Sequence record: OP251154.1
Reading direction: 5' to 3' (one strand)
From: Escherichia phage TR2
Length of the DNA: 45,171 bases
The notes under the pieces were generated by a model. That model did no database searches. It was not told the origin of the DNA and was given only the letters and a program-made list of their open reading frames with translations. The position numbers and the translations under genes are program-made. Numbering within the stretch: position 1 is the stretch's first letter; every line of letters begins with the position of its first letter. Shown here piece after piece: positions 1,092 to 44,649 of this stretch.

Positions 1092-1134
1092 ATTATATGG
1101 CATCAATGCCTGTCACGTTTAGCTATTCGTGCTG
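1092..1134 (-). promoter_or_regulatory. operator/-10 promoter cassette (CAGCA-N5-AGCTA operator, 22-nt spacer, TATAAT)
   Basis: Gene-orientation read: CAGCAcgaatAGCTA, 22 nt, TATAAT (plus 1092-1097 attata). Operator doubles as the C-terminal codons STNS-stop of the upstream ORF. Confidence 0.55.
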
Positions 1135-1277
1135 TCTACATCTGGCCCTCTATCAAAAGTTGCTAATACTTCGTCTGTATCGCCATCGCACTCAAACGTG
1201 TCACCGTATTTCTCATTGAAGTAGATTAAATCCTCAACAAATTCATCACATTTCGGGAATAAACATGTGTTAAGCAT
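1119..1277 (-). CDS. small Cys-containing hypothetical protein (52 aa)
   Basis: Manually translated minus ORF MLNTCLFPKCDEF...DSTNS, below the 60-aa track cutoff; ATG overlaps stop of upstream ORF. Confidence 0.4.
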   Translation of the reverse strand: MLNTCLFPKCDEFVEDLIYFNEKYGDTFECDGDTDEVLATFDRGPDVDSTNS

Positions 1278-1428
1278 TTTTCTTATCCTCGCCCTTATTT
1301 AGACCACGCTTTTCCTCACGCTCTTTCCAGATATTCATTAACTCAAAGTACATCATGGCAATCTCGCCAGTCTCAGCATCATCCATCATTCTCTTAGCCC
1401 ACTGGCTTGGTTTTTCGTAGTTATCCAT
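1270..1428 (-). CDS. small hypothetical protein (52 aa)
   Basis: Manually translated minus ORF MDNYEKPSQWAKRMMDD..., packed between neighbours. Confidence 0.4.
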   Translation of the reverse strand: MDNYEKPSQWAKRMMDDAETGEIAMMYFELMNIWKEREEKRGLNKGEDKKNA

Positions 1429-1446
1429 CTAATCGCATGCCTTAAA

Positions 1447-1581
1447 TTATAGTTCGTTAGAATGCGTTTTAGCATCGTCTACGGCTGCCGAAATAATGTA
1501 AATAATCGCGAAGCCCAGAGACCACAACAACCATGGTAAAGCCTCAACTAAAACCTCGTCAATCATAAGTTCCGTGTGCAT
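1447..1581 (-). CDS. small predicted membrane protein (44 aa)
   Basis: Manually translated minus ORF MHTELMIDEVLVEALPWLLWSLGFAIIYIISAAV... with one hydrophobic helix. Confidence 0.4.
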   Translation of the reverse strand: MHTELMIDEVLVEALPWLLWSLGFAIIYIISAAVDDAKTHSNEL

Positions 1582-1591
1582 CTTGTTTTCC

Positions 1592-1771
1592 TTAAATCTT
1601 GTTCAATTGCTCAAGAATTTCGTAAGCCAGTTCTCTAGCTTGCTCTTCTGTTAAGTGGATGGTGTGAACTTGAGGTTCGTCACGCATTCCGCAAGCCTGA
1701 GCAATGATGAATGTTGCGTAGCCGTCGGAGTGGTTAGCCTGAAGTTTTGGTTCTGATTGTCGGAATCTCAT
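1592..1771 (-). CDS. small hypothetical protein (59 aa)
   Basis: Manually translated minus ORF MRFRQSEPKLQANHSDGYATF...; ATGA start/stop overlap with upstream gene (1768-1771). Confidence 0.45.
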   Translation of the reverse strand: MRFRQSEPKLQANHSDGYATFIIAQACGMRDEPQVHTIHLTEEQARELAYEILEQLNKI

Positions 1772-1977: not shown

Positions 1978-2008
1978 CTCTATACTCCATCGTGTTGTCG
2001 ATGTGGTA

Positions 2009-2051
2009 ATTATGCCGGATTTCTCCGGCGATTGTTTAGCAATTCGTGCTA
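2009..2051 (-). promoter_or_regulatory. operator/-10 promoter cassette (TAGCA-N5-TGCTA, 22-nt spacer, CATAAT)
   Basis: Plus 2037-2051 TAGCAattcgTGCTA; -10 at plus 2009-2014; leader CATCGACAACACGA then ATG at 1977. Confidence 0.55.
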
Positions 2052-2531
2052 TTGTCCATTCAGGAGTAATTTAGCTTCCCGATAAAACTCCATCGCCGCC
2101 TCAACCTCTTCCTCGCTGTACCGCAAGTGGTATGGTAGTCTACTAGGATGCTTACCTTCGTAGACCTTGAAGTTAGGCTCCCAACACTCATTGAGTATTG
2201 CGGGGTGAACATAAACCTTATCGCCAATTAGACATGTAACATTCATCTTGTCGAGCTCTGGGATTAGCTTGTCCTTGATGAGCAACATCACTCCATTACG
2301 CCCAACAAAAGGCTTAACCTTTCGAGCTCCTTCATATACAGACCTGACACCAACCACTCCTTTCCCGTTAACTCCCATCTTCCTGATGATTTTAATTAGC
2401 ACACCAAGCTCATCACCTGAGTACACATCTGACGTATCAATCGAACCCCAGAATGGCGTTGACTGACGATACCCATTTGCATTTATTACGATTCTGACTG
2501 GCGAAAGTCCATCTTGCCTGGCGATATTCAT
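2049..2531 (-). CDS. internally truncated paralog of the P-loop replication protein at 5132..6715
   Basis: N-terminus (RIVINANGYRQSTPFW) and C-terminal ~70 aa (NGKGVVGVRSVYEGARKVKPF...TCLIGDKVY) match the ends of the 527-aa protein; central Walker-A region absent. Confidence 0.6.
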   Translation of the reverse strand: MNIARQDGLSPVRIVINANGYRQSTPFWGSIDTSDVYSGDELGVLIKIIRKMGVNGKGVVGVRSVYEGARKVKPFVGRNGVMLLIKDKLIPELDKMNVTCLIGDKVYVHPAILNECWEPNFKVYEGKHPSRLPYHLRYSEEEVEAAMEFYREAKLLLNGQ

Positions 2532-3542: not shown

Positions 3543-3636
3543 ATTGCAAATTCTGCAACAATCAAAAAAATCATTGCATCAGATGCAATATTGCTATATG
3601 TGCAATAATGAGATGAATCATTGCAATAACTGCAAT
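3543..3636. promoter_or_regulatory. array of three ATTGCA-N5-TGCAAT palindromic operator-like sites
   Basis: Sites at 3543-3559 (ATTGCAaattcTGCAAC), 3573-3589 (ATTGCAtcagaTGCAAT), 3620-3636 (ATTGCAataacTGCAAT); same GCA-N5-TGC core as the promoter operator. Confidence 0.5.
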
Positions 3637-3655
3637 AATACATAAACCCAACGAA

Positions 3656-3699
3656 TAGCACTTTTTGCTAATGACAAACATTGGTAACGAGACCATAAT
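3656..3699 (+). promoter_or_regulatory. operator/-10 promoter cassette for the plus-strand early operon
   Basis: TAGCActtttTGCTA at 3656-3670, 23-nt spacer, CATAAT at 3694-3699, leader CATCAACAACGAGGAGAG, ATG at 3727. Confidence 0.55.
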
Positions 3700-3726
3700 G
3701 AATCCATCAACAACGAGGAGAGAGAT

Positions 3727-3924
3727 ATGAAACTTAAAGACGAAGCGTATGAGCAGCTAAAGCAGGAATGCGCTCTGATTGGGTTGAACGAGATGTACAG
3801 CGATATGGTTTTGCGCGGCAAGATTGATATTGACCTCGCTAAGCAATTCCAGTCAGATGATGAGTATCTATGTTGTGATGGCTTGGGCTGTGACGAATGT
3901 TTACCCTGGCAAGGAATGAGATGA
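3727..3924 (+). CDS. hypothetical protein (65 aa)
   Basis: ORF track; first gene of plus-strand operon. Confidence 0.5.
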   Translation: MKLKDEAYEQLKQECALIGLNEMYSDMVLRGKIDIDLAKQFQSDDEYLCCDGLGCDECLPWQGMR

Positions 3925-4320: not shown

Positions 4321-4481
4321 TGCTATTACCATCTGAGATTAACTATTTTGATCTGGAAGTTATTAGTTCTTACAGCGGCAAGGGCTGGCCTTGCGGGGAA
4401 TGGTTCAACGAGGACTTGCTTGAATCTCACGAGATTATGCTTAAGGCGATTGAGAAGGCGAGAAATAGCACGAATTGCTAA
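4320..4481 (+). CDS. small hypothetical protein (53 aa)
   Basis: Manually translated MLLPSEINYFDLEV...ARNSTNC; ATG overlaps upstream stop; last codons are the operator sequence. Confidence 0.45.
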   Translation: MLLPSEINYFDLEVISSYSGKGWPCGEWFNEDLLESHEIMLKAIEKARNSTNC

Positions 4482-4508
4482 AGCCCTTCGGGGCTTTTGT
4501 TGTATAGT
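4466..4508 (+). promoter_or_regulatory. operator/-10 promoter cassette
   Basis: TAGCAcgaatTGCTA at 4466-4480, 22-nt spacer holding hairpin GCCCttcgGGGC plus T-run, TATAGT at 4503-4508, then CATCGAAACGAAA. Confidence 0.55.
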
Positions 4509-4540
4509 TTCCTCATCGAAACGAAAGAGAACAAGTAATC

Positions 4541-4705
4541 ATGTTTGACAACTTTTACGACGCGATGGAAGAGGCAGTTTTCAGGGCCTCGCTTGATGGA
4601 AAGATTTACGGTTTAGTTCAGAAAGTTGATAAGATTGTTGTGCGTATCGTGCGCAAATCAGTACCAAACAAATTCATGTGGACTACAAAAGAGAGGGCTG
4701 AATAA
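4541..4705 (+). CDS. small hypothetical protein (54 aa)
   Basis: Manually translated MFDNFYDAMEEAVFRASLDGK...; TAATG overlap with next gene. Confidence 0.45.
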   Translation: MFDNFYDAMEEAVFRASLDGKIYGLVQKVDKIVVRIVRKSVPNKFMWTTKERAE

Positions 4706-5058
4706 TGACTACTACCATAACTAAAAATTTCATTAGCAAAGACAACCAACTGTTTAAAGCTCGCGTTAAAGATGGTGTCGAGCAAATCAAGAAAGATGGC
4801 AAATGGGTTAATCTGGAAGAACGTGGTAAATACATTAAGACCAGAACGCTTTACGTGACACATGTTAACCACAAATCTGGCGTTAAGAAGTATTTCAAAG
4901 AAGGAAAGAGATACCAGGTGCTAATGCATAGCGGGATGGGTCAGTCTGCTGGTTACATTTACGACGAAGATGGTAATGCATGGCAGCTATATCGAAGCGA
5001 AGATGTTGGTTTCTACACTCTTTGCCAGACTTACCTATTTGAATCATCTTACAAATAG
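4705..5058 (+). CDS. hypothetical protein (117 aa)
   Basis: ORF track. Confidence 0.55.
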   Translation: MTTTITKNFISKDNQLFKARVKDGVEQIKKDGKWVNLEERGKYIKTRTLYVTHVNHKSGVKKYFKEGKRYQVLMHSGMGQSAGYIYDEDGNAWQLYRSEDVGFYTLCQTYLFESSYK

Positions 5059-5101
5059 CAGCACGAATTGATAATGCATTATAAGCGGCTGTTGATATAA
5101 T
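5059..5101 (+). promoter_or_regulatory. operator/-10 promoter cassette
   Basis: CAGCAcgaatTGATA at 5059-5073, 22-nt spacer, TATAAT at 5096-5101, ATG at 5132. Confidence 0.55.
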
Positions 5102-5131
5102 GGCCGCTCAGAAACAATACGGAGAGAAGTA

Positions 5132-6715
5132 ATGTTTGATTTCAACGAAGATAAACTATCTGTTGAACAAGTTATGGCGATTGCCGCGACCGACAACCTC
5201 CCACCGCTTCGCGTTGCCATTAATGCAAATGGCTATCGGCAGTCTCAATCATTCTGGAAAACACCTGTGGAGATTGACGCAGGTAATGACAAGTACCCTG
5301 TAATATCTCTAGGCAATGACATTGATGTTGTTGGTAAGCTCTCGGCAAATATTGCTCGCTCAGTTCAGTTCCCAGAGTCATCAGCATACATGCACTTTTT
5401 GGGTTGTGTGTCCGCTGCGATGCTAGGGCGCTTTACTGTTGAGTATCACGGAACCCAGCAGCCAACATCGCTTTACGTGGTAACTAGCCAGCCGCCATCT
5501 ACTGGTAAGTCAGCCATTAACTCTCTGTCAATTGCGCCAATGATTGCTGAGACTGAGCGTTTGAACGAGGTGCGTAAACGTGACCGCAAAAAGATTATGG
5601 CTAAGCTGTCTGCGCTAGCAAAAGAAATGAAACAGGAGAAGTCACCATCTGAGATGGCTTCACTGTTTGAGGAGAAGGAAGATTTAGAGGAAAAGCTCGA
5701 GAAGCTGTGCGATATCGTATTCCCGGTCTCAGATACTACGCCAGAAGGTCTTGCACGAATCAACAACCGCCAGGGTAACTTTGCGGTCATCTCGGATGAG
5801 GCAACAAGCGTCAACTCATTATTGGGCATGACATACGGTGATGGTTCCAAGAAAACGAACAGCGAGCTTGTACTTAAAGCGTGGGATGCTGGTAACGTAT
5901 CTATTGCCCGCGCTAACGCAGAAAACAACATGAGTTTCGTGGCAATGGGGTGCATCTCTGTAATTGCTCAGGATGAAACAATCAATGCGATTATGAATGC
6001 TGGTGCGCGTGGTATTGGTGTTTCCGAGCGTTTCCTTCTGGTGCGTGAAAAGTCATTTCTTGGAGACCGCGTGTTTGTTGATGAGAATGGCGATTCAACA
6101 TACGAGGCTATTGATGATGGTCTTAAAGCAGACTATTTCCGTCTCGTTCATGAAATTATGAATGAAGTTGAAGTGAAACTGACAGTAAGTGCGTCATCCA
6201 TGCGCTACCTTAACCGAGCTCGCCAGGAAATGGAACCGCATCTTGGTGATGGCGGTAAATATTCCCACACGATGTTACGTGGTGCTCTTGGTAAATTTGA
6301 TAAGCAAGCAATCCGTATTGCCTCAGTATTGCACGTTATTCGCAACTGGTTCGCACCGGCAGGGTCGAGTCCGCAGAAATCAAGAGAGATTGAGCTTGAA
6401 ACAATGCAAGAAGCGGTTATGATTTTCCACGAGTTAAGCAAGACTTATTTGTCGTCCGCTAGTGCTGCTGGTCATGCTGGTGATAATGCTGAAATGAATA
6501 AGCTGGTTGATATCCTGATTAAGCAAGGTAAGAATGGGAAGGGTGTTGTTGGCGTTCGCTCACTGTATGAAGCAGCACGCAAAGTTAAACCTTTTGAAGG
6601 ACAGGCTGGCGTAATGACTCGCATCAAGGACCACTTGGTTCCTATGCTTGATGAGAAAAACTATACATGCCTGATTGGTGATAAGATTTACATTAATCCG
6701 CGATTGTTGGGGTGA
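5132..6715 (+). CDS. putative replication initiator/helicase-like P-loop NTPase (527 aa)
   Basis: Walker-A-like TSQPPSTGKSA; has its own promoter cassette; N- and C-terminal segments duplicated in 2049..2531. Confidence 0.6.
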   Translation: MFDFNEDKLSVEQVMAIAATDNLPPLRVAINANGYRQSQSFWKTPVEIDAGNDKYPVISLGNDIDVVGKLSANIARSVQFPESSAYMHFLGCVSAAMLGRFTVEYHGTQQPTSLYVVTSQPPSTGKSAINSLSIAPMIAETERLNEVRKRDRKKIMAKLSALAKEMKQEKSPSEMASLFEEKEDLEEKLEKLCDIVFPVSDTTPEGLARINNRQGNFAVISDEATSVNSLLGMTYGDGSKKTNSELVLKAWDAGNVSIARANAENNMSFVAMGCISVIAQDETINAIMNAGARGIGVSERFLLVREKSFLGDRVFVDENGDSTYEAIDDGLKADYFRLVHEIMNEVEVKLTVSASSMRYLNRARQEMEPHLGDGGKYSHTMLRGALGKFDKQAIRIASVLHVIRNWFAPAGSSPQKSREIELETMQEAVMIFHELSKTYLSSASAAGHAGDNAEMNKLVDILIKQGKNGKGVVGVRSLYEAARKVKPFEGQAGVMTRIKDHLVPMLDEKNYTCLIGDKIYINPRLLG

Positions 6716-6718: not shown

Positions 6719-7054
6719 ATGTTTCTACTCGACGTATACAAGTTCTGCGAAGGATACAGGAACTTCAACCGCCAGCACCTGGCAAGATTCATCTACAAGC
6801 ACAAGGATTGTGCAAGGATGGCTAAGGCCGCTGGAGTTGATGAAAGGTATTTTGCATCTAGTTGCTCGAAGGAGTTTATGGCGAGAATGCTTACGGCTGG
6901 TTATCTTGATGGAGTTAATGGCGTGTACTGGTCAAAGGGTTCAGGCAAGAGGCCATTCCAGTTTGAGTTTATGAGCCTTGAAGGTAAGTCTAGTGCTTAT
7001 GTTAATGAGATGATGAATATAGCAACCATGAGTGACGAAGAATTGTTTGCATAA
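6719..7054 (+). CDS. hypothetical protein (111 aa)
   Basis: ORF track; last gene before bidirectional terminator. Confidence 0.5.
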   Translation: MFLLDVYKFCEGYRNFNRQHLARFIYKHKDCARMAKAAGVDERYFASSCSKEFMARMLTAGYLDGVNGVYWSKGSGKRPFQFEFMSLEGKSSAYVNEMMNIATMSDEELFA

Positions 7055-8277: not shown

Positions 8278-8451
8278 TTAATCTGCGATAATAAATTCCA
8301 CCAAAGAGCCATCAATCGGCGCAAGGATGTGAGTCATATCGTCGCCATAAATCTTGTAGTAACCGCTACCAAGATGCTCGCCGCTGTATGGCTGATTCTC
8401 AGTAAACGGAAGCGTCTTTGAGTTGTTTTTCACGCAGTATAGTTTAGTCAT
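8278..8451 (-). CDS. small hypothetical protein (57 aa)
   Basis: Manually translated MTKLYCVKNNSKTLPFTENQ...; sits between promoter cassette and terminator. Confidence 0.35.
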   Translation of the reverse strand: MTKLYCVKNNSKTLPFTENQPYSGEHLGSGYYKIYGDDMTHILAPIDGSLVEFIIAD

Positions 8452-8482
8452 TTTTGAATCCTCTGTTGTTTTCGATTTGGTG

Positions 8483-8525
8483 ATTATACCTAATTGCTGT
8501 GGCGATTGTTTAGCGATTCGTGCTA
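8483..8525 (-). promoter_or_regulatory. operator/-10 promoter cassette
   Basis: Gene-orientation TAGCAcgaatCGCTA (plus 8511-8525), 22-nt spacer, TATAAT (plus 8483-8488); operator encodes NSTNR-stop of upstream kinase. Confidence 0.55.
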
Positions 8526-9064
8526 TTTATTGCATCAATCACTTTTTCTGTAGTTATTTTAATATCACCTTCAATAACATCAATATCAATTTCCCTTGCG
8601 CAGAGGCCGCTAATGTATGACCTACTATCTCCTTCGAAAGTGTAACCAGGTCTATGAAGCCTAACCAATGTAACCTCAACACCACTTTCAATTAGTGGCT
8701 CAATTTCACTTGCAAATCCACCATCTGAACAGATGTGGCAACCATTGCCAAGAGACTGAGCTAGCCTTTTACCGAAAACTTCATCACCAAAAACTGGCTT
8801 CATCACTGATTCGCTAATCCAAATCATAAATTGACGAACAGTCATTCCACCAAGAAATTCATGTGGTGATTCTTTGTACTCTCGATCATCGTAATTCTTA
8901 ATAAATCCATCAAACTCATCGCTTGATAGCATGCTCTTAGCCACATTAAACATAGGTGATTTGAAAGAAACCTTATCCCTGCAAATTCCAAGTTTAACAA
9001 TGATATCTGCAACTGTATCTTTTCCAGCACCTGGGGGTCCATTAAGGATGATTAACTTTTTCAT
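8510..9064 (-). CDS. deoxynucleoside monophosphate kinase-like P-loop kinase
   Basis: N-terminus MKKLIILNGPPGAGKDT resembles T4 gp1 dNMP kinase; Walker A. Confidence 0.6.
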   Translation of the reverse strand: MKKLIILNGPPGAGKDTVADIIVKLGICRDKVSFKSPMFNVAKSMLSSDEFDGFIKNYDDREYKESPHEFLGGMTVRQFMIWISESVMKPVFGDEVFGKRLAQSLGNGCHICSDGGFASEIEPLIESGVEVTLVRLHRPGYTFEGDSRSYISGLCAREIDIDVIEGDIKITTEKVIDAINSTNR

Positions 9065-9113: not shown

Positions 9114-9662
9114 TTATTTAGAATTCAGATTTTCTACACCATGAGATTTAAGGCCGCTGTGAACATTATAACCATAATCACAAACCTGATAAGTGGTTAT
9201 CCCTAGAGACCTAAAGTGATTTATTACATTCGGGCTATCATCCCAGGCCGCCGTAATTCTTTCAATCCCAATTGAATTTAAGAATTCCTCTTTAATTATC
9301 GTATCCTTCCTGTTGTCCGAAGCTGATCGCATTACCATTACGTTGTATTTGCATCCATTTTTAGTAAGCCAATCAAGTGACTCATCTAGAACATGATCAG
9401 ACCTTCCTGTTAAAATGATTATGTATGCGCCGCTATCATAAATCGAATTCATTACGCTTATCGTATCATTAAATGGAGAATCAAATCTGCTTAGTGAGTT
9501 AAACTCAATCCACGACTCGGTAAGGTGAGGGTCAGTTTTTGGGAGCTTATCAAGTCTGTGAGCCCCGTCAGAAAGCGTTCCGTCATAATCAAAAATATAA
9601 ACTGGCTTACCTTTGAAGTCATTGTTAATTGATTTTTTTATCATTGAATATAGTTGTTTCAT
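9114..9662 (-). CDS. HAD-superfamily phosphatase (nucleotidase or PNK 3'-phosphatase-like)
   Basis: HAD motif I FDYDGTL and downstream ILTGR; co-transcribed with the kinase. Confidence 0.5.
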   Translation of the reverse strand: MKQLYSMIKKSINNDFKGKPVYIFDYDGTLSDGAHRLDKLPKTDPHLTESWIEFNSLSRFDSPFNDTISVMNSIYDSGAYIIILTGRSDHVLDESLDWLTKNGCKYNVMVMRSASDNRKDTIIKEEFLNSIGIERITAAWDDSPNVINHFRSLGITTYQVCDYGYNVHSGLKSHGVENLNSK

Positions 9663-9692
9663 TTTTGTTTACCATCTCGTTTGTGTTTGATT

Positions 9693-9735
9693 AATATACC
9701 CAGATTTCTCTGGGATTTCTTAACAAAAAGTGCTA
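9693..9735 (-). promoter_or_regulatory. operator/-10 promoter cassette
   Basis: Gene-orientation TAGCActttttGTTA (plus 9721-9735), spacer with hairpin CCCAGAgaaaTCTGGG, TATATT (plus 9693-9698). Confidence 0.55.
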
Positions 9736-9739
9736 TTTA

Positions 9740-10879
9740 TTACATTCCAGGTCGATAGATATGACGACCAACCTCGCCAAACTCTTTGTGATAAACAATC
9801 GCGGCAGCCTGACGATATGAGCGCCACCCCCCTCGTGCTGCATACGCATCCTTGCTTGCTAGTGCTGGATGTACTTCGTCAATACCAAGAGTGCACTCTG
9901 TTACTGTTGCGTGGTGAAAATGCCCGGAATGGCAATAAACGAACTCGCATTCACCAAAGTCTTTCCTGTAATCAGTTGCCATAGCTGCAAGTCTACCTTC
10001 CGCTTTCTTCATTGTGTGACCATGAGTGTAGCCAAGTAGTGTTGAGCCAAATCTTGTCTTGTGCATAATCGCAGGGCTTACATCAACAAAGACACGACTC
10101 TCATTTTCATAAAATGCAGCCATCGCAGCCCGAAGCCAGATCATGCCGCTTTGGTCATGATTTCCCTCGATAATTTGAATGTCAACACTTTTATGCTTTT
10201 TAAGCATCTTTTCTACAGCGCCACGAATTGATCTAATTGCGATGTAGACTAACTTAGCGTAACGGCTATCTTGGTCAAGGCAGTGGCCACTAGCTGGAGT
10301 TACCGCCTCAAGACCATCTGAGTGGAGATAATCACCGCCAACAAGGATGACTGCCTTTTCTGAAGCTGGCGAAACTGATATTGCATGGTCAAAGTATGAG
10401 CCCATTAGTTTTTCTGCCGTTGCCGTGTCATAATTTTCACCAGACTCGTGGCGATGGGCCATCATTCCAATATGTATGTCGAAAATTGGATACAGTGTCA
10501 TTAGGTCAGGGTTTGTATCTTTGCCTGAATGCTTAACTTCCTCACACTTTGGCAACTCAGAACAGAAAGCCTCTCGCGCTTGCTCGAGCATAATTTCAAG
10601 GCGTTCATTATCAACGCTCGTCTTAACCCAGCGCAGCTTCTCATTCCCATCCGCATCAATCATGGTTGAAGTACCCTTGACTAAATAGCCGTCCGGCACT
10701 AACTTCTTGATACCATCATTGCCATGCCCAAACAAACCACTCTTAGCTAACTTACTGCGACGAAGTTCAACGTTGCGAATGTTCATGTCGTACTTCTCCG
10801 CAATCGCCTTGTTAGTCATGCCGTTTTTAAGTTCTTCGATTAGCTGATCGTTGGTAATCTTTGCTACTGTCATTTTCAA
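9740..10879 (-). CDS. calcineurin-like metallophosphoesterase with N-terminal HTH domain
   Basis: Full motif set FDIH, GDYLHSD, GNHD, GYTHGH, GHFHH; N-terminal ~60 aa look like a helix-turn-helix. Confidence 0.65.
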   Translation of the reverse strand: MKMTVAKITNDQLIEELKNGMTNKAIAEKYDMNIRNVELRRSKLAKSGLFGHGNDGIKKLVPDGYLVKGTSTMIDADGNEKLRWVKTSVDNERLEIMLEQAREAFCSELPKCEEVKHSGKDTNPDLMTLYPIFDIHIGMMAHRHESGENYDTATAEKLMGSYFDHAISVSPASEKAVILVGGDYLHSDGLEAVTPASGHCLDQDSRYAKLVYIAIRSIRGAVEKMLKKHKSVDIQIIEGNHDQSGMIWLRAAMAAFYENESRVFVDVSPAIMHKTRFGSTLLGYTHGHTMKKAEGRLAAMATDYRKDFGECEFVYCHSGHFHHATVTECTLGIDEVHPALASKDAYAARGGWRSYRQAAAIVYHKEFGEVGRHIYRPGM

Positions 10880-11572: not shown

Positions 11573-11794
11573 TTATTTAAAATCCTCTGGGCAATCTTTC
11601 TTCATCTCTGCAATGTCTGCAACCATTCGGTCGCGCCACGTTTCGATATCAGTTCGCAAGTAATCTTCCTCAAAACTATAATCCAGGCAACGAGCCAAAT
11701 CCCAAACATCACCTTTATATCCAGCCTTGTGCAACTCCTGCGATGCCATTGCCTGAAATAACTCCCACTGCTTGTCAAAGGTTAAAATCGCCAT
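11573..11794 (-). CDS. hypothetical protein (73 aa)
   Basis: ORF track. Confidence 0.4.
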   Translation of the reverse strand: MAILTFDKQWELFQAMASQELHKAGYKGDVWDLARCLDYSFEEDYLRTDIETWRDRMVADIAEMKKDCPEDFK

Positions 11795-11994
11795 TACTCA
11801 GATACCTCATCAAATTTCTCGCCAAACGCGTTTTTAACAGTTTCTAAATCGTCTTTGTAAGTTGGGCTGACTTCAAATGCGTAGTTAACATCTTCAACAT
11901 CAATAAGAATATAACCATCATCTGTGATAGCAAGTGAGTATTGGTAACCGGTCTTGCGTGATTCGTAGAATTTTCCAGTATAGATAGTAGCCAT
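11794..11994 (-). CDS. hypothetical protein (66 aa)
   Basis: ORF track; first gene after a promoter cassette. Confidence 0.45.
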   Translation of the reverse strand: MATIYTGKFYESRKTGYQYSLAITDDGYILIDVEDVNYAFEVSPTYKDDLETVKNAFGEKFDEVSE

Positions 11995-12032
11995 TTTCTT
12001 TCTCTCTTCGTGTGTTTCGTTTCGATGAAGTG

Positions 12033-12075
12033 ATAATACACCACTTCATCAATTCGTCTTTAGCAATTCGTGCTA
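12033..12075 (-). promoter_or_regulatory. operator/-10 promoter cassette
   Basis: Plus 12061-12075 TAGCAattcgTGCTA; -10 TATTAT (plus 12033-12038) inside inverted repeat GATGAAGTG/CACTTCATC; leader CATCGAAACGAAA. Confidence 0.55.
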
Positions 12076-12492
12076 TTTTCTAATCATCTCTGCGAATGCA
12101 GCAAGAAAACCATCTCTGCCGTAGGCAACTCCTGCGAAACCGCCTGATTCCCTTACGCTTTTTAGGAATGACTTTTGCTCATCACTTACTGGGCTAGCCT
12201 GTGTTTTCCCAGCCCTCTTTAGCTCTATTGCGCCAAATGGATAACTTCCTCGTAATGACTCAGGTATTAGAAATAGGCAGTCTGATACGCCTTTAAGAAG
12301 TCCTTTAGCCTGGTCTTTCCTTGCCTGACCAATGCTCTTCATTGATTCATTAACTGTGTGCCAGTAAACAACCTGCGGATAGTTATACTTAACCCAATCA
12401 GAGCAAAAGATTTGTTCGTCGTCTTCCTTCGGGCATGACTTCACCGGGCCGCCATAGAACTCGAGGTAGTCAGTTTTGTCTGTAACTTTCAT
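12073..12492 (-). CDS. VRR-NUC domain nuclease
   Basis: PD-(D/E)XK-like motifs (GVSDCLFL, GAIELKRAGK, SPVSDEQKSFL); ATGA overlap with helicase stop. Confidence 0.6.
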   Translation of the reverse strand: MKVTDKTDYLEFYGGPVKSCPKEDDEQIFCSDWVKYNYPQVVYWHTVNESMKSIGQARKDQAKGLLKGVSDCLFLIPESLRGSYPFGAIELKRAGKTQASPVSDEQKSFLKSVRESGGFAGVAYGRDGFLAAFAEMIRK

Positions 12493-14483: not shown

Positions 14484-14524
14484 TTTAAATATCCTGATAG
14501 TTCTTTAGTTCGTTGCATTGATGT

Positions 14525-14566
14525 ATAATAACAGCCATCGAACCCATTGTTTAACAAAAAGTGCTA
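14525..14566 (-). promoter_or_regulatory. operator/-10 promoter cassette for helicase operon, inside a divergent region
   Basis: Plus 14552-14566 TAACAaaaagTGCTA; minus -10 TATTAT at plus 14525-14530 (21-nt spacer) overlaps a plus-strand TATAAT at 14524-14529. Confidence 0.5.
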
Positions 14567-14579
14567 TTGAGGTAATGAG

Positions 14580-15062
14580 ATGTGTGAAATCGACAAGCGA
14601 ACTATTAACGGCAATAACGGAACCGTGCGCACAAAAGACAAAAAGCAACGCAAACGACCATCAGGCTACTACGTATTGAAAGATGAGGTAAAGGCTGGGC
14701 TACGTGCTCGCCTGGAGATGGTTCTTGATTTCTACGGTACAAAGGCGAACATCGCAAAGCAGTTAAATGTGTCCAACCAAGCTGTATCGGAATGGTTTAA
14801 CCGCGGTATGATTTCGGCTCGAGGGGCTCAGCGAGCACATAATGCGTACAAGCGAAATAAGGAGGGATTTCGAGCTACATTCTGCCGACCAGACCTGCAA
14901 TTCGACGGAAACGGAAAACCGCTAACACTTCGATGCAAGAAGCGCCATATGCTTCGCGTAGTTACCGATGCAGAACTAGCAACAAAGCCACCCTGTCGAC
15001 CATGGCGAAAGAATAAGGCCGCTAACGAGGCAGCGCGAAAAGCTAAAGAGCAAGGGAAATAG
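14580..15062 (+). CDS. putative HTH DNA-binding protein (Cro/YdaS-like)
   Basis: HTH-like segment KANIAKQLNVSNQAVSEWFNRG; basic C-terminal half; first gene of plus operon. Confidence 0.5.
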   Translation: MCEIDKRTINGNNGTVRTKDKKQRKRPSGYYVLKDEVKAGLRARLEMVLDFYGTKANIAKQLNVSNQAVSEWFNRGMISARGAQRAHNAYKRNKEGFRATFCRPDLQFDGNGKPLTLRCKKRHMLRVVTDAELATKPPCRPWRKNKAANEAARKAKEQGK

Positions 15063-15102
15063 CACGAATTGATAAACAGTGGCGCTATACATTGTGTATA
15101 GT
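15060..15102 (+). promoter_or_regulatory. operator/-10 promoter cassette
   Basis: TAGCAcgaatTGATA at 15060-15074, 22-nt spacer, TATAGT at 15097-15102. Confidence 0.55.
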
Positions 15103-21426: not shown

Positions 21427-21427
21427 C

Positions 21428-30650: not shown

Positions 30651-30653
30651 AGT

Positions 30654-31004
30654 TTAACTCATTGAGGTGAAAACTTCAGTAAATTGCATACTAACAGTCT
30701 GAACTTCTTTCGTGCTTGGCGAGACGCTAATGCTATCCTGCTGAATAACGAACAGTTTTAACTCACCCTGCGGCGTAGTCCACGCGAAAGGTTTTACGAT
30801 GTGATCGAAGCAGAAGTTCATTACTGCTTCCCACTCACGACCAACGTAGCTAACCGTATACGTCCTTTTATTCGTTCTGTAGCCTCCAGTACCACGCTGC
30901 TGAAATCCATTCCCAAATGAGACAACCCTAACATTGTTGGCGTTAGTAAATGAAGAGCCGCCATTGAGAACGTTCAAGCACCAGTTAAAAGTTTGCAATG
31001 CCAT
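30654..31004 (-). CDS. minor tail protein (lambda gpM-like)
   Basis: 116 aa directly downstream of the tape measure gene; synteny. Confidence 0.6.
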   Translation of the reverse strand: MALQTFNWCLNVLNGGSSFTNANNVRVVSFGNGFQQRGTGGYRTNKRTYTVSYVGREWEAVMNFCFDHIVKPFAWTTPQGELKLFVIQQDSISVSPSTKEVQTVSMQFTEVFTSMS

Positions 31005-34709: not shown

Positions 34710-34958
34710 TTACTTTGATTCGTTTTTTACAATGTTGTGAGCAACTTCGGTGCACACTTCGCGACCATAGTGCAGAATCTGGTTTGTCTTATCGCCAGCT
34801 ACTTTTTCACAATGCGAATATGCACTATTAAATTCATGTTCATACTTTATTGCATCAGAGTTTGCGGTTGCGCCACCAGTTGGGTTGACAATCTGAATTG
34901 CCAGGTAGAAAGCACCAAGAGCAGCAGTAAGTTTGATGATATTTTTAACGTTGTTCAT
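34710..34958 (-). CDS. small secreted protein with signal peptide (82 aa)
   Basis: N-terminal hydrophobic signal-like segment IIKLTAALGAFYLAIQIV; co-transcribed with membrane peptide from its own promoter. Confidence 0.45.
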   Translation of the reverse strand: MNNVKNIIKLTAALGAFYLAIQIVNPTGGATANSDAIKYEHEFNSAYSHCEKVAGDKTNQILHYGREVCTEVAHNIVKNESK

Positions 34959-35117: not shown

Positions 35118-35156
35118 TTTGCTTACCTCTATAATCCATCTCGTTTCGATAAAGTA

Positions 35157-35199
35157 ATAATAGCAAATCCCTGCCACACGTCTTTAACAAAAAGTGCTA
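35157..35199 (-). promoter_or_regulatory. operator/-10 promoter cassette inside the tail module
   Basis: Plus 35185-35199 TAACAaaaagTGCTA, 22-nt spacer, TATTAT (plus 35157-35162), leader ATCGAAACGAG. Confidence 0.55.
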
Positions 35200-35203
35200 T
35201 CAA

Positions 35204-36746: not shown

Positions 36747-37113
36747 TCCTCCTCAGAATTGGCCTGTATGCGACTACAGTACCTGTTGGTTTCACTGGTC
36801 TCGGGTCGACTACAGTGTAAGTTTCATCGTCCACAATAATCCTGTAGCCCTGTAAGATTGGGACTTCGGAAGTGAAGATTCCACGCTTATCGCCAAACTG
36901 AATATACTCACCATCAATATCTCTGGTTTTAATCTCCCTCACCAGCCCCTTGATTAATGCAGTGCCGCCAGATACAGGAACCTCGACACCATCGACAATC
37001 TCCACCCCACCTTTACCAGTTTCCATGGTAAACGTACCATCGCCATCACTAAAGATATTGATTCCCGTTCGCATTAATGATTCGATTTGAGAGTAATTCA
37101 TCGGCAACCGCAC
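36730..37113 (-). CDS. putative head closure protein
   Basis: Position and size only. Confidence 0.4.
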   Translation of the reverse strand: MRLPMNYSQIESLMRTGINIFSDGDGTFTMETGKGGVEIVDGVEVPVSGGTALIKGLVREIKTRDIDGEYIQFGDKRGIFTSEVPILQGYRIIVDDETYTVVDPRPVKPTGTVVAYRPILRRIAAYG

Positions 37114-37508
37114 CCACGCCCACCGGACGTAACCAATCCAAAGCCACCACCTTTCTTACGCAGAAGGTTCCAGTACAGACGACCCCACGGGGTGGAAGTC
37201 AGTGCTGATTGTGATTGAGACGTTGATTCATAGCTGATAGAGAACTCACCACTCAGTGAGTAACTTGCCACCTTCTTACCGTAATCATCCAAAGACTCAT
37301 TCTGCTTAAGTGCACCATCAAGAAAGGCAATGTGCATAGTGTACAGTGCCAGTGCCTTGTAAGCATCATCACCAAACTTACTGGTACAGATGTAAAGCTT
37401 GGCTAGCTCAAGCCATACGTCAAGTGTTTCATCAGAAACATTCTTAAGGGCAGGAACTAATGACCTCATGAATGCTAATGCTTGTTCGTTCATATTACCT
37501 CCATACAA
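37098..37508 (-). CDS. putative head-tail adaptor
   Basis: Position and size only. Confidence 0.4.
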   Translation of the reverse strand: MYGGNMNEQALAFMRSLVPALKNVSDETLDVWLELAKLYICTSKFGDDAYKALALYTMHIAFLDGALKQNESLDDYGKKVASYSLSGEFSISYESTSQSQSALTSTPWGRLYWNLLRKKGGGFGLVTSGGRGCGCR

Positions 37509-37780: not shown

Positions 37781-37810
37781 TACTTGCTCCTTTTATTAAT
37801 TGATGATTGA

Positions 37811-38419
37811 TTATAGCACTAAACAATCGCCTTCGTGAACCCCATTGGCGTTTCCGTACTCGCCGAATATTTCTTTACACCAACTGTCGTAACACTCCTT
37901 AGCCTCTTCAATTGTGTCAAACCTTTTAGCCATCCTTACATCTCCGCAATCCTTTTGTATCTGGGCTTTCCACTTCACCCTTGATTTATCGTAGCTAACA
38001 CCTTTAAATCCACTCTTGTTCCTTTTGTATAGGCTCGTATTCATCATGTTCTCACTTCGAGTAACAACCCTTAGGTTTTCCACCCTATTGTTTAATGAGT
38101 TACCATCAATGTGATCTATCTCACCTGTCGGCCAACTCCTGTGATGATAAAACCACTTTAACTTATGCATTGAAACGTGAAACTTCTTCCCGGAAACTTT
38201 AATACATAGCTTCCACATCTTACTTTCTGGGCATGTTGGGTTTGGAGTGAATTCACCTCCAGCAACCTTTCCGGCGTACCTTGAATTCCATACATTTGTA
38301 AACCTATCATTTCCCGGCTTTACTTTCCATGTCATAACGGGACTTTCAGAATCTGATTCAAGTCTTGATGTTAGCTCTTCGTGAGTTAGTAGTTCTTCAA
38401 TTTTCATTTTCGCCTCCAT
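37811..38419 (-). CDS. HNH homing endonuclease with AP2 domain
   Basis: IDHIDGNSLNNRVENLRVV plus AP2-like KSGFKGVSY...W.A.I. Confidence 0.8.
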   Translation of the reverse strand: MEAKMKIEELLTHEELTSRLESDSESPVMTWKVKPGNDRFTNVWNSRYAGKVAGGEFTPNPTCPESKMWKLCIKVSGKKFHVSMHKLKWFYHHRSWPTGEIDHIDGNSLNNRVENLRVVTRSENMMNTSLYKRNKSGFKGVSYDKSRVKWKAQIQKDCGDVRMAKRFDTIEEAKECYDSWCKEIFGEYGNANGVHEGDCLVL

Positions 38420-38435
38420 TGTTTTGATGGAAACA

Positions 38436-38478
38436 AAAATACCACCTTTCGGTGGTATTGTTTTGTCATTTAGTGCTA
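38436..38478 (-). promoter_or_regulatory. operator/-10 promoter cassette with embedded terminator hairpin (weak -10)
   Basis: Gene-orientation TAGCActaaaTGACA (plus 38464-38478), 22-nt spacer holding ATACCACCgaaaGGTGGTAT, TATTTT, leader CATCAAAACAA. Confidence 0.4.
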
Positions 38479-39423
38479 TTAGGCAAAGGTAATTCCTTTG
38501 ATAGCTGCCACTGTAAGAGGGCGATATAAAATCAAACCTGTCGCCTTAGAGGTTACAGGGAAGCGGAAGTGAAGATCACGAGGCTGACCAGGTAAAACGT
38601 TTGTAACTTCCGGAATCTCGATGCTCATGTTGAGCGGATCCTTTTCAAACGCCAGCGCAGCTTTACCGCCAGCACCATCGTAGTTATCCAGGACCTGCAT
38701 AAAGCGCAGGGTTACACCTGGGTTGTTACGAGTAAACAACTCGCCATAGCTCAGGGTTGTATTATCAACAAGGCGCTGCATTACACGGCGAGCGGAAGCT
38801 GGCAGCAGAATGTCAGTTACATGGTGGAAGCCCTGTGTGCTGGTTTCTACAGCATCAATCATTGCGGTAACGTCGTTAACCGCGTTAATTGGATTGCTCC
38901 AGTTTGGAGTTGCAACAACGTTGTTGATGTTCGGCTGGTTAAATACGCTTACGATGCCGTGAGGTGCAGAGCCAGACCATACCAGTTTATCAAGCAGGTT
39001 GTCGTGAGCTTCAAAAGCCAAAGCCTGTTTGCGAGCGGACAGTGACTGACCAGTAGCAGCGCCAACTTTAATCTCATCAACTGAGATCATAAACGCATTA
39101 CCGAAGCGGAATACTTTACCCTGCTTCTCGGTCATGAAAGCATCAACCATCGGCAGGTCGTCAGAGTAATCAGCGATGATCTGAGCAATACCAACACCAT
39201 CGAACTCATTGTATTCGAAGTATTTCGCGTGACCAGGGATTTCGTTGGTTACTGGGAAGATGTTGACAACTGAGTTGTCTGCGTATTCTTTTTCGTAAGC
39301 GCGATTCAGTGATGCGGTTAACTGCTTAACGGTCCAGATACCAGCAGCATCAGCCTTATCTACGCCCATTTGCTCTAGGTGAGCGGTGATTTTTGCTTGT
39401 TCTGCATCAAATTTAATGGCCAT
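38479..39423 (-). CDS. major capsid protein
   Basis: 314 aa in canonical position after portal, protease/scaffold and decoration candidates. Confidence 0.7.
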   Translation of the reverse strand: MAIKFDAEQAKITAHLEQMGVDKADAAGIWTVKQLTASLNRAYEKEYADNSVVNIFPVTNEIPGHAKYFEYNEFDGVGIAQIIADYSDDLPMVDAFMTEKQGKVFRFGNAFMISVDEIKVGAATGQSLSARKQALAFEAHDNLLDKLVWSGSAPHGIVSVFNQPNINNVVATPNWSNPINAVNDVTAMIDAVETSTQGFHHVTDILLPASARRVMQRLVDNTTLSYGELFTRNNPGVTLRFMQVLDNYDGAGGKAALAFEKDPLNMSIEIPEVTNVLPGQPRDLHFRFPVTSKATGLILYRPLTVAAIKGITFA

Positions 39424-39513
39424 TCTTGTTTATTCCTTTTCAGTTAGGTATGTACGAGTCAATTATACACTAGTTTGAGGACCGCGCAATGATTCTATCA
39501 TGACCAAGCGGAA

Positions 39514-42448: not shown

Positions 42449-42497
42449 TTTCTTGCTCCAATAAAAAAGCCCCATTTAAGAGGCTAGTTTATCACGC
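42449..42497 (-). terminator. weak hairpin plus T6 fused to RBS before the portal gene
   Basis: Minus-strand read AGCCtcttaaatgGGGCT, TTTTTT, ATTGGAGCAAGAAA, ATG. Confidence 0.35.
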
Positions 42498-44069
42498 TTA
42501 TTTAATTCCTGCTAATCGCATCATTCTCGCTTTAGGGTCTTCTGCGATGTTCAGTACCAGGTTGACAGCCATCGTCAAACAGTCTATCTGGTCATCGTGC
42601 GAGTGAGAATCATCTGCCGTAAATGCTGCAATCTCTGTTAGCAATCCGTTAAGCCAATTTGCTGACTCCGGCAGGATAACGTTGCCAGCCTTAATCTGAG
42701 GAAGTGCACTCATTACGCGAGTCAGCTTGTCGTTATCTGGCACGTATGGCTCGATAGGCGTTCGCATAACCCTTCCTGCTGATTGAATCAGACCTATACC
42801 AGATGCTTTCTTCTCGATGATGATTTTACGAAGGATACCATCTGTCTGATTGGATGCCCTTGCCATCCTCTCGAAGTCTAATAGCTCTGCCTCTAGCTCT
42901 GGCGCCTCCCATTTACCACGTCGCTGGTCTAACAGGTAAATCTTGCCATCCTTATAGCCCCAGAGTTGCAGTACACTAAAGTCACTGTAGCTTTTAGTGG
43001 TCATCGCGGTATCAAGCGTCATGAACCTGTAATCGTACTTAGCTGGCGGTCGCAGGGTGTCACTAATGCGCTGGAGCCAGTCTACGTTAATCAGGTTGCC
43101 ACCTAGAGCTACAGGCTCCTGAGCATATTGACTAAGGAATGTGTAAGGATCAGCATCACGCATGGCTATCAAGTCTTCTATTGATTCCTTTGCTGGGAAG
43201 TAGCTGTAATACTTAACCCCATCGCGCTCTACAAATGGCGAAGAAAGAACGTCATCTATAAACTGCTGCCTAATCCATTCAGGAAGCGTGTCGGCGTATT
43301 CTTCCGTGACTATTGCTGGAATTTTAACTACGTCGAATTTTATCCCCATCTGCCCGGACTCCATGAAGTGACTAGTGTCAAGAACATGAAGCCTTTGCTG
43401 AACGGCTAATATTGGAGTCTCTTTTCCCTTAACTGAACTCGCCCTTCGTGAGCGAATTGTGTTCTTGAGAAGCATATTAACAGCCTCCCTCCTTACATTA
43501 CTAAGCGCATCATCTGGCTTCAGCGGGTCATCAAGCATTATGCATCCACTGTAATCATCGGTCATGTAACCACCACGCGAACCAGTCACCTGTCCAGCCA
43601 TTGCCTTAGATATCGATTCAAACCTCACCTTTCCATCTTCATCTAGAACCTGAATCTCATCATCCCTGCAAGTCCCAAATGAGCAAGGCCAAAGTTCCTG
43701 AAACTCCTTTGACTTAATCAGGTCGCGCACACGCTTTGAGTTACGCTTAACCAATGAGTCAGAGAACGACAAACTAAGATTTCTAACCTTCTTAATCTTG
43801 ATCATGCTATATACAGGGAAATGTATACTAAAGAGCTCGGTTTTGGCTGATCCAGGAGCTACGTTTATGATGGTATCCTTTCTCTTACCATCAAGAATCT
43901 CATCTATGACACGACAAAGGTATTTAGCATGCCAATTCATTTTGAATCTCTCGCCTTGCGTTATCTGAAAGAAGCACCGCAAGAACCCTTCGAAACTATG
44001 CTCAGAGATTGCCTTTATAGCCATCTTTTCAGCGTGAGTCAGTTCATCCCAGACTATTAATTCACTCAT
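42498..44069 (-). CDS. terminase large subunit
   Basis: N-terminal ATPase Walker-A-like NVAPGSAKT and C-terminal nuclease acidic motifs (DQIDCLTMA); followed by portal. Confidence 0.85.
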   Translation of the reverse strand: MSELIVWDELTHAEKMAIKAISEHSFEGFLRCFFQITQGERFKMNWHAKYLCRVIDEILDGKRKDTIINVAPGSAKTELFSIHFPVYSMIKIKKVRNLSLSFSDSLVKRNSKRVRDLIKSKEFQELWPCSFGTCRDDEIQVLDEDGKVRFESISKAMAGQVTGSRGGYMTDDYSGCIMLDDPLKPDDALSNVRREAVNMLLKNTIRSRRASSVKGKETPILAVQQRLHVLDTSHFMESGQMGIKFDVVKIPAIVTEEYADTLPEWIRQQFIDDVLSSPFVERDGVKYYSYFPAKESIEDLIAMRDADPYTFLSQYAQEPVALGGNLINVDWLQRISDTLRPPAKYDYRFMTLDTAMTTKSYSDFSVLQLWGYKDGKIYLLDQRRGKWEAPELEAELLDFERMARASNQTDGILRKIIIEKKASGIGLIQSAGRVMRTPIEPYVPDNDKLTRVMSALPQIKAGNVILPESANWLNGLLTEIAAFTADDSHSHDDQIDCLTMAVNLVLNIAEDPKARMMRLAGIK

Positions 44070-44071
44070 TG

Positions 44072-44578
44072 TTACGCTCTCGTATTTAGGTAGCCTTTAT
44101 TTTCAGAGCCATGATTTTCATGATATCCGTTCAATTTGTCATACTGCGACCTTGCCAATGCAGCCTCCTCTATAGTGTCCTTGTAGCATATGAAGACTGT
44201 TTTACCAAACTCTCTAGCCTGAACAAGCCATCTATTCTCTCTTTTGCACCAGCTTACACCGTTTATTCCGCTTTTATTTCTTGATGATAGTGATCTGTTA
44301 TTTGAGTTCTCTTTATTGCTTACTAACCTTAAGTTCTCTATTCTATTGTCACTTCTATTTTGGTTTATGTGATCTATGTGCATGCCTTTAGGGATTGCTC
44401 CATTGTGCATCTCCCACACCACCCTGTGACACCTGTATGCTTTTTGTCTATACTTTAGTATCACATAGCCAAATTTATCAACTCTTCCGGCCACCTCTCC
44501 AACCTTTGATACATTTGCTACTTTTACCTTTCTTATTAAAAGCCCGTCTCTATATTCAAAAATATCATGCCAATTCAT
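44072..44578 (-). CDS. HNH homing endonuclease with AP2 domain, between small and large terminase genes
   Basis: IDHINQNRSDNRIENLRLV plus AP2-like NKSGINGVSW. Confidence 0.8.
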   Translation of the reverse strand: MNWHDIFEYRDGLLIRKVKVANVSKVGEVAGRVDKFGYVILKYRQKAYRCHRVVWEMHNGAIPKGMHIDHINQNRSDNRIENLRLVSNKENSNNRSLSSRNKSGINGVSWCKRENRWLVQAREFGKTVFICYKDTIEEAALARSQYDKLNGYHENHGSENKGYLNTRA

Positions 44579-44606
44579 ATGATCACCTCGCTAGTTTGTT
44601 GGGCCC

Positions 44607-44649
44607 ATTATCTCATTGATTGGGCCTCTTCTTTTAACAAAAAGTGCTA
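44607..44649 (-). promoter_or_regulatory. operator/-10 promoter cassette
   Basis: Plus 44635-44649 TAACAaaaagTGCTA, 22-nt spacer with GGGCCCA/TGGGCC inverted repeat, GATAAT (plus 44607-44612). Confidence 0.5.

Follow-up and report, generated by a model that had tools for sequence, protein, structure and literature searches.

A repeated, marbox-like promoter cassette in the T1-like Escherichia phage TR2

Escherichia phage TR2 (sequence record OP251154.1) carries a promoter cassette that is repeated throughout its genome, and in which an asymmetric 20-bp box stands in place of the -35 hexamer. Judged from its sequence, the box is the Escherichia coli marbox, the site recognised by MarA, SoxS and Rob, which are activators of stress and antibiotic-resistance genes. 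On balance, we favour the view that the cassettes are class II mar/sox/rob-type sigma-70 promoters, most likely served by host Rob, MarA or SoxS, so that most phage transcription may depend on a stress regulator of the host and not on one that the phage encodes. The window analysed here is the whole stretch of 45,171 bp, a complete T1-like phage genome (Drexlerviridae, Braunvirinae). Over the compared stretch it is 99.8% identical to Rao1, 98.7% to TR1 and 75-80% to ACG-M12, and its gene order is collinear with the annotated TR1 record. An Rfam scan of the window found one tRNA-Arg and matched no other family.

The repeated box and its match to the marbox

The genome-wide motif, AATAGCAC-nnn-TTGnTAAA, has 20 copies in the window. 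At up to three mismatches, the 20-mer AATAGCACGAATTGCTAAAG occurs nine times compared with 0.02 expected, and a position matrix finds 20 strong sites. An earlier note on this DNA, made without database searches, had proposed at least 19 intergenic sites sharing one architecture. This count holds: 19 of the 20 boxes are directed at the next gene, each with a -10-like hexamer. The cassettes are also present in T1 (~23 copies), ACG-M12 (~21 copies) and two Klebsiella weberviruses. Outside the Drexlerviridae, the Pantoea myovirus PSKM (genus Dibbivirus) has ~10 cassettes in its early region. In an IMG/VR scan for the box, the multi-copy contigs among the matches listed were all T1-like and of 40-60 kb; host information was not given.

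The published marbox, 5'-GCAnnWWnTGnnAAA-3', is non-palindromic and has a specific orientation (PMC12052159). A stricter form, GCAHWWWWTGYYAAA, is bound by a MarA monomer (PMC6900184), and the MarA paralogues SoxS and Rob also recognise the marbox. The window contains 13 exact matches to GCAnnWWnTGnnAAA, compared with 1.17 in dinucleotide shuffles; all 13 are cassettes, and the other seven boxes have one mismatch each. The stricter pattern matches six times compared with 0.04 expected. A box profile made by aligning 83 copies from five phages agrees with the marbox position by position. An older marbox 20-mer, which Martin et al. reportedly gave in 1999, is AYnGCACnnWnnRYYAAAYn.

The relationship also holds in the opposite direction. 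A matrix trained on the phage boxes alone ranked the known box first in five of six E. coli marbox promoter regions. The known micF and marRAB boxes came first at ~1e-6 per site, and so did the fumC, mdaB and zwf boxes that earlier papers had named; the inaA box did not. The median phage site scores ~30 bits, compared with 12 for micF and mar and <4 for fumC, mdaB and zwf. Because the host boxes score far lower, the phage sites can be regarded as super-consensus.

Promoter geometry

Nineteen nucleotides (nt) separate the end of the 20-mer from the -10-like hexamer in 16 of the 19 cassettes, with 18 nt in one and 20 nt in two. This is the spacer that the earlier note had counted from TGCTA as 22 nt in 16 copies. 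Among the 83 copies from five phages, 66 have the same spacing between box and -10. The motif start lies 71-86 nt from the start codon in 18/19 cassettes (partly counted by hand against the ends of open reading frames, ORFs). Position 2 of the -10 hexamer is A in 71/83 copies and position 6 is T in 72/83, and a G is found at -14 in 63/83. A transcript start at C(-1)A(+1)T had also been proposed for many copies; the predicted +1 is A in 58/83 copies and is preceded by C in 49/83.

The absence of a -35 hexamer is borne out. The cassettes lack a usable -35, their best -35-like hexamers being 4/6 matches at 16 or 18 bp. Canonical sigma-70 -35/-10 promoters are not enriched in the 40 kb scanned from the left end (57 compared with 44 +/- 7, and 34 compared with 34 +/- 6), and none exceeds 10/12 matches. 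Stereotyped promoters with an upstream box in place of the -35 imply that a single DNA-binding factor serves them all.

Class II marbox promoters have a forward box over the -35 region, centred near -41, no -35 and a canonical -10 (PMC10268841). In the micF promoter the box centre is at -41.5, and electron cryo-microscopy showed a single bound SoxS molecule (PMC9638938). The micF promoter of E. coli MG1655 consists of ACAGCACTGAATGTCAAAAC, 18 nt and TAGAAT. The marbox 20-mer is the 20-mer of the earlier note moved by one base, and in this frame the distance to the hexamer is 18 nt in 16/19 window cassettes, as in micF. The box centre falls at -40.5 relative to the predicted +1, which agrees with the class II activator position proposed earlier. 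The phage cassettes share with the E. coli class II mar/sox/rob promoters (micF, fumC and others) the consensus, including the GCAC and AAA elements, the forward orientation, the missing -35 and the canonical -10; with micF they further share the 18-bp distance to the -10. They differ from host marbox promoters in that ~20 boxes, far closer to consensus, are found in 45 kb of a virulent phage as its main promoter type.

The 20 boxes and the features that accompany them are as follows.

Box starts, first half of the matrix sites: 1117-, 2034-, 3654+, 4464+, 5057+, 8508-, 9718-, 12058-, 14549-, 15058+
Box starts, second half: 16619-, 19350-, 19904-, 22303+, 23112+, 23429+, 29842-, 35182-, 38461-, 44632-
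1085-1136 (-): cassette with box 1117-1136, TATAAT and predicted +1; before the gene at 826-1062
2002-2053 (-): cassette with box 2034-2053, CATAAT and a hairpin in the spacer; before the gene at 1768-1977
3654-3706 (+): cassette with box 3654-3673 and CATAAT at 20 nt; before the gene at 3727-3924
4464-4515 (+): cassette with consensus box, TATAGT, leader ATCGAAACGA and a terminator-like hairpin in the spacer; before the gene at 4541-4705
5057-5108 (+): cassette, TGATATAAT; before the DUF3987 replication gene at 5132-6715
8476-8527 (-): cassette with TATAAT; before the gene at 8278-8451 and the holin, endolysin and spanin genes
9686-9737 (-): cassette with TATATT; before the polynucleotide kinase gene at 9114-9662
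12026-12077 (-): cassette with consensus box, TATTAT, leader ATCGAAACGA and a hairpin enclosing the -10; before the gene at 11794-11994
14518-14568 (-): cassette with TATTAT at 18 nt, in a divergent intergenic region; before the helicase gene at 12489-14483
14580-15062 (+): gene of the conserved Cro/P22 C2-like helix-turn-helix (HTH) protein, the main phage-encoded rival candidate for reading the box
15058-15109 (+): cassette with TATAGT; before the HNH gene at 15123-15653 and the primase gene
16607-16615 (+): putative tail-fibre promoter (gene at 16659-18155) with extended -10 TGATACAAT, following the primase terminator
16619-16638 (-): box in reverse orientation, no proper -10; covers about +1 to +20 of the tail-fibre promoter (operator position)
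19318-19369 (-): cassette with TATCAT; before the ERF recombinase gene at 18645-19295
19872-19923 (-): cassette with TAATAT; before the HNH gene at 19365-19844
22303-22354 (+): cassette with CATATT and a long leader of ~100 nt; before a small rightward ORF near 22450
23112-23163 (+): cassette with TACTAT; before the gene at 23186-23446
23429-23480 (+): cassette with TATGAT and leader ATCGAAACGA; before the genes at 23491-23757 and 23748-24713
29809-29861 (-): cassette with TATAGT at 20 nt, inside the tail region; before the small gene at 29578-29787
35150-35201 (-): cassette with TATTAT and leader ATCGAAACGA, after the tail-tube gene; before small ORFs and the tail chaperone genes
38429-38480 (-): cassette with a terminator hairpin in the spacer and TATTTT; before the HNH gene at 37811-38419
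44600-44651 (-): weaker cassette, TGTAGCAC..., TGAGATAAT; before the HNH gene at 44072-44578 and the large terminase gene
26-34 (-): box-less promoter of the small terminase gene (gene start at 45171, on the other side of the record junction); terminator, TGGTATAAT and cassette-like leader
37810-37818 (-): box-less extended -10 TGCTATAAT after a terminator hairpin; second, box-less promoter type
39492-39500 (-): box-less extended -10 TGATAGAAT after a terminator; before the major capsid gene

As the earlier note had stated, a cassette directly precedes all four HNH genes, ERF, the helicase gene and the DUF3987 replication gene. Four cassettes lie inside the structural region, each preceding inserted genes. 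The cassette at 3654 (+) opens the rightward early operon and has no same-strand gene upstream. The box at 16619-16638 runs antisense to the genes around it, and a proper -10 is missing there.

The element in the earlier literature

The repeat itself is already known. A re-annotation of phage TLS in 2024 (German, Kropinski et al., PMC11447400) described a 21-nt direct repeat, aaATAGCACnnnTTGnTAAAA, in 21 copies ~76 nt before start codons, running in the direction of transcription, with central subtypes G, T and A, and seen also in T1, Rtp and Rogue1. Its authors found three sigma-70-like promoters only and left the function open among stoperators, enhancer-binding sites and UP elements (PMC11447400). 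The TLS/T1/Rtp/Rogue1 repeat is the same element as the window box, with ~20 copies in the same direction; that account includes neither the marbox nor the constant spacing from the -10, nor does it mention copies in reverse orientation at late promoters (PMC11447400). The literature searched contained no paper tying the marbox or Rob, MarA or SoxS to T1-like phages. In the literature searched on T1-like phages, which did not include the T1 (2004) and Rtp genome papers, we also found no transcript-start map or promoter-directed transcriptome.

Two of the functions listed by the TLS authors can be weighed against the profile and the geometry. The box could be a factor-independent promoter element, UP-like or making some other direct contact with RNA polymerase, that boosts -35-less promoters. 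Its location at -50 to -31 and its centre of A or T only would suit such a role. UP elements, however, are A/T tracts without invariant G or C, and the GCAC and G14 of the box are given as invariant (83/83). The same box is also found downstream of or inside late promoters, in either orientation, and this dual placement, in the cassettes and at late promoters, is hard to reconcile with a UP element. We regard it as quite improbable.

We consider it very improbable that the boxes are stoperator-like sites, as in mycobacteriophage L5, where a repressor bound to asymmetric, transcription-oriented sites blocks elongation between genes. The resemblance is in the many asymmetric, oriented intergenic copies and in the proposed binding by a monomer, and a few phage boxes do lie at operator or roadblock positions of late promoters. 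L5 stoperators, however, repress and are not tied to a -10. The phage boxes have a fixed -10 distance in 75/83 copies and a missing -35, which are the marks of a promoter element, and boxes occur at the first promoters of divergent regions, where there is nothing upstream to stop. Moreover, T1 is virulent and is not known to have an immunity repressor, and the same is taken to apply to this phage.

Other promoter classes were tried and rejected. TTGCTA cannot be a displaced -35, as a 22-bp spacer is too long for sigma-70. Compared with a sigma-54 promoter (TGGCAC-N5-TTGCW, with GG at -24 and GC at -12), the phage TAGCAC-N3-TTGC has the first G replaced by A in 82/83 copies, its spacing is 2 nt short, and it is trailed by a conserved -10 hexamer at a fixed distance. 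T4 middle promoters, which depend on a MotA box and on sigma appropriation by AsiA, are similar in being a phage-wide class in which an upstream TGCT-containing box replaces the -35 above a good -10. A MotA box, however, has its centre at -30 and only 11-13 bp between it and the -10, and the phage TGCTA ends 22 bp from the -10, so that a MotA box was also rejected. No MotA or AsiA homologue is named in the record annotations or emerged from Pfam scans of ~20 window proteins, which were not a dedicated search. The PeSL mobile promoter cassettes of T4-type phages likewise combine a stereotyped promoter with a hairpin, repeated through the genome near inserted accessory or homing-endonuclease genes. 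These are ordinary sigma-70 early promoters with a -35, whereas the phage cassettes have no -35 and carry an activator box.

The box is asymmetric

The earlier note read the shared sequence as a palindrome, TAGCA-N5-TGCTA, serving as the operator of a dimeric regulator. The sites are real, but the perfect palindrome is found in only 7/20 boxes, and an operator read by a dimer is not supported, as the half-sites are not conserved symmetrically. G5, C6, A7 and G14 are invariant in 83/83 boxes, and A4, C8, T12, A17 and A18 nearly so. Positions 10-11 are exclusively A or T, and positions 17-19 are AAA. Position 15 is C, T or A in 81/83 and position 16 is T or C in 80/83. The dyad partner of the invariant G5, position 15, can be C, T, A or G, and is complementary in 49/83 (59%). 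Pairs 1-19, 2-18 and 8-12 are complementary in 8, 1 and 0 of 83, despite conservation on both sides. Finally, every promoter-associated copy has the same orientation.

The box could also act in RNA, with UAGCA-N5-UG(C/U)UA at the 3' end of the upstream transcript forming a hairpin for processing or protein binding. In favour of this, position 15 is C or U, both able to pair with G5, in 76/83 copies, and most boxes overlap the stop codon of the gene before them and are followed by a hairpin or terminator. Yet compensatory covariation is absent, the 5-bp stem with its two G-C pairs is weak, no Rfam family matched the box, and the fixed distance to the -10 is left unexplained. At 3654 (+) and 14549 (-) the box is present without any upstream transcript. 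The box is better seen as a DNA element because it is found at the first divergent promoters, where the upstream DNA is untranscribed on that strand; an RNA function is barely plausible.

Which protein reads the box

The earlier note had anticipated a dedicated phage regulator and named three candidates. The protein encoded at 9740-10879, described as an HTH-phosphoesterase, gave only a weak, sub-threshold match to calcineurin-like phosphoesterases, and a T1 gene of similar size at the matching map position is annotated as an SbcD-like exonuclease. The Rha-family regulatory protein gene at 20932-21450 (-) looks accessory because the near-identical TR1 has an HNH endonuclease annotated in its place. 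Neither is a convincing regulator of the cassettes. The third candidate, the HTH protein encoded at 14580-15062, is considered below.

A phage-encoded MarA-type protein was not detected either. MarA searched against the six-frame translation of the window (phmmer) gave a best E value of 1.2, and tblastn for an AraC-type protein in six Drexlerviridae genomes, including the window, a best E value of 0.47. With MarA or PSKM gp47 as tblastn query against 50,697 phage records, there were no Drexlerviridae among the matches listed, and no AraC-type domain was revealed when 23 window proteins, among them every unassigned ORF of at least 100 residues, were scanned with Pfam. Every early operon has a box, including the first promoters of both divergent control regions, and canonical promoter scans of the first 40 kb made no strong factor-independent early promoter evident. 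With no AraC-type gene in the phage and a box at all early promoters, a host factor is most likely.

We envisage that the box, ATAGCAC-www-TTGyTAAA-n, would act in the forward orientation at -50 to -31, taking the place of the -35 with its centre near -41, and 18 bp upstream of a good -10 that often has a G at -14. The predicted transcript would begin with the A of CAT and continue into the conserved leader ATCGAAACGA. A monomeric activator with two HTH motifs, of the MarA/SoxS/Rob type, would bind the box with one HTH on GCAC and the other on TAAA, and would touch RNA polymerase, substituting for -35 recognition. The factor would be a host protein: constitutive Rob, joined by MarA and SoxS under stress.

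Several observations weigh against this assignment. In the laboratory, T1-like phages grow fast on cells that are not stressed. Without stress, however, little MarA and SoxS is present, and most of the Rob is sequestered in aggregates (PMC10268841). A screen of the Keio single-deletion collection with the T1-like phage LL5 yielded only receptor, lipopolysaccharide, tolC, ppiB and secB genes; rob, marA and soxS are unmentioned in its main text (PMC7229145). As the screen is silent on them, none of the three would be singly essential, a result that fits redundancy among Rob, MarA and SoxS and equally a phage factor. For any T1-like phage, the literature searched offered no binding, footprint or transcript 5'-end data. 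A point in favour of a MarA-type reader is PSKM, which shares head and replication genes with T1-like phages and encodes amid its cassettes a MarA-sized AraC-family protein (gp47, 36886-37296; HTH_18, 50 bits; 28% identity to MarA). In the alignment the W..QR of MarA helix 3, reportedly DNA-contact residues in the MarA-DNA structure, is replaced by C..GE, and because of this difference the link between gp47 and the box is only circumstantial. Two further points against a host factor are that the core of the box is partly dyad-symmetric, with half-sites 10 bp apart, and that a Cro-like HTH protein is conserved in every cassette-bearing genome (T1 55% identity, PSKM 40%).

The last two points favour the most serious phage-encoded alternative, in which a dimer of the Cro/P22 C2-like protein would bind TAGCA-N5-TGyTA near -42 and activate through sigma region 4. 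Lambda CI at OR2 activates PRM through this region, and the two systems would be alike in a site near -42, a weak -35 and a phage-encoded C2/Cro-like HTH protein. The TR2 protein contains an HTH of the P22_Cro type, and its gene is preceded by a separate TATAAT without a box. Four of the five core pairs of the box are complementary in 86-100% of copies (71-83/83), and a Keio screen that did not report rob, marA or soxS is consistent with this alternative. Lambda operators, however, are symmetric and few, whereas the phage box is asymmetric, strictly oriented and present in ~20 copies. A dimer would not explain why G5 is invariant while its partner varies, why the flanks (AA at 1-2, AAA at 17-19) and C8/T12 are complementary in at most 8/83, or why all promoter copies have a single orientation. 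The predicted recognition helices differ between phages (NQAVSEW, HAVVSEW, IQVVQQW, NQTVQGW, FSGVRSW) and the box consensus stays constant, which disfavours the Cro-like protein as its reader. Its gene is in the replication module in the middle of the genome, and the earliest operons are already box-dependent, with no strong factor-independent promoter evident. A Cro-like reader would also leave the exact marbox match and the micF geometry as coincidence. We therefore consider this alternative unlikely and retain a host MarA/SoxS/Rob-type activator as the preferred reader of the box.

One further phage protein deserves mention. The gene at 6719-7054 is a homologue of T1 gp70 (52% identity); a Protein Data Bank sequence search with T1 gp70 came back empty. 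Judged from sequence, its product would be a single winged helix rather than a two-HTH protein, and our guess is that it is most likely tied to replication.

Boxes and box-less promoters of late genes

A second promoter type, consisting of a terminator hairpin and an extended -10 without a box, precedes the small terminase, capsid and head-tail genes. The core structural genes would otherwise depend on such box-less promoters.

Some boxes are reversed at, or overlap, late promoters: at 16607-16638 in the window, at 8345-8380, 15062-15089 and 34890-34945 in T1, and at 32097-32116 in a further genome, L001. The reverse box at the tail-fibre promoter is kept in ACG-M12 and T1. T1 has a forward box that overlaps its TerS promoter, TGgTAAAAT, and a reverse box that forms the spacer of its capsid promoter, TTGACG-N16-TATTAT. 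MarA represses from boxes that overlap core promoters, as at rob, purA and hdeA. The arrangement suggests that these boxes are operator sites for repression by the same factor. The activator proposed for the cassettes would then repress wherever a box overlaps the start or spacer of a late promoter (tail fibre here; TerS and capsid in T1), so that one factor may activate ~19 promoters and hold back a few late ones.

Implications

T1-like phages are classic, abundant and used in phage therapy. Since the T1 genome was published in 2004, annotators have found almost no recognisable promoters, and the repeat described in TLS in 2024 was left without a function. The class II marbox reading provides a concrete promoter model for these phages, and names purified, well-studied proteins for which a triple mutant exists. 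If host Rob, MarA or SoxS indeed serve the cassettes, the drug-tolerance regulon of enteric bacteria would at the same time support a lytic phage; inducers such as salicylate, bile salts and paraquat would be expected to alter the outcome of infection, which bears on phage-antibiotic combinations; and the cassettes would provide engineers with compact, strong modules that combine an inducible promoter with a terminator. If the reader is a phage protein after all, it has copied the host site and geometry exactly, which would also be notable.

A wider proposal is more tentative, and we hold it to be possible rather than probable. The Drexlerviridae and the Dibbivirus myoviruses may have almost no self-sufficient promoters and may conduct their early and middle programme through host MarA, SoxS or Rob acting on super-consensus class II marboxes. 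Reverse and overlapping boxes would restrain late promoters until the activator had been degraded or titrated out as phage DNA replicates, and the speed and yield of infection would follow the stress state of the host (bile, salicylate, oxidants, antibiotics).

Further features of the cassettes and control regions

At 14524-14531, the TATAAT of the Cro-like gene (+) overlaps the TATTAT of the helicase cassette (-) on the opposite strand, and the same is seen in T1. The Cro-like and helicase promoters should exclude each other.

The divergent early control region at 3544-3635 contains four TTGCA-N5-TGCAA palindromes within 92 bp. Three are exact, and no other exact copy exists in the genome; the T1 record begins with two such palindromes. 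We consider the cluster more likely to be a pac site, from the TR1 annotation and the T1 record start, than an operator of the Cro-like protein. The palindromes are probably terminase-binding repeats.

The central triplet of the box varies by region. The boxes at 29842, 35182, 38461 and 44632, in the structural region, are all of the T or A type (CACTTTT, CACTAA), and the early-arm cassettes are mostly of the G type (CACGAAT).

Genes and promoters are packed with no spare bases between them. Of the 20 boxes, 14 contain or directly adjoin the stop codon of the preceding gene (for example at 15060-15062, 12073-12075, 4479-4481 and 8510-8512), either as TAG at box positions 3-5 or as TAA at 16-18 or 0-2. 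Hairpins occur within the cassette spacer or around the -10, for example at 12030-12058, 15078-15105 and 38438-38459 in the window, and many are found in T1. Their arm sequences vary between copies, and 42-86% of the cassettes per genome have a z score below -1.5. Some of these hairpins are intrinsic terminators whose T-tract serves also as the -10. The leader ATCGAAACGA often runs on into GAGATGG (for example at 4515-4525, 12016-12026 and 35140-35150), giving a possible 5'-terminal hairpin, CAUC...GAUG.

HNH homing-endonuclease genes are accompanied by cassettes of their own, and two such units differ between near-identical phages. The window cassette at 38429-38480 and its HNH gene at 37811-38419 are both absent from TR1, and the TR1 cassette at 30772, with the HNH gene at 30248-30718, is likewise absent from the near-identical other phage.

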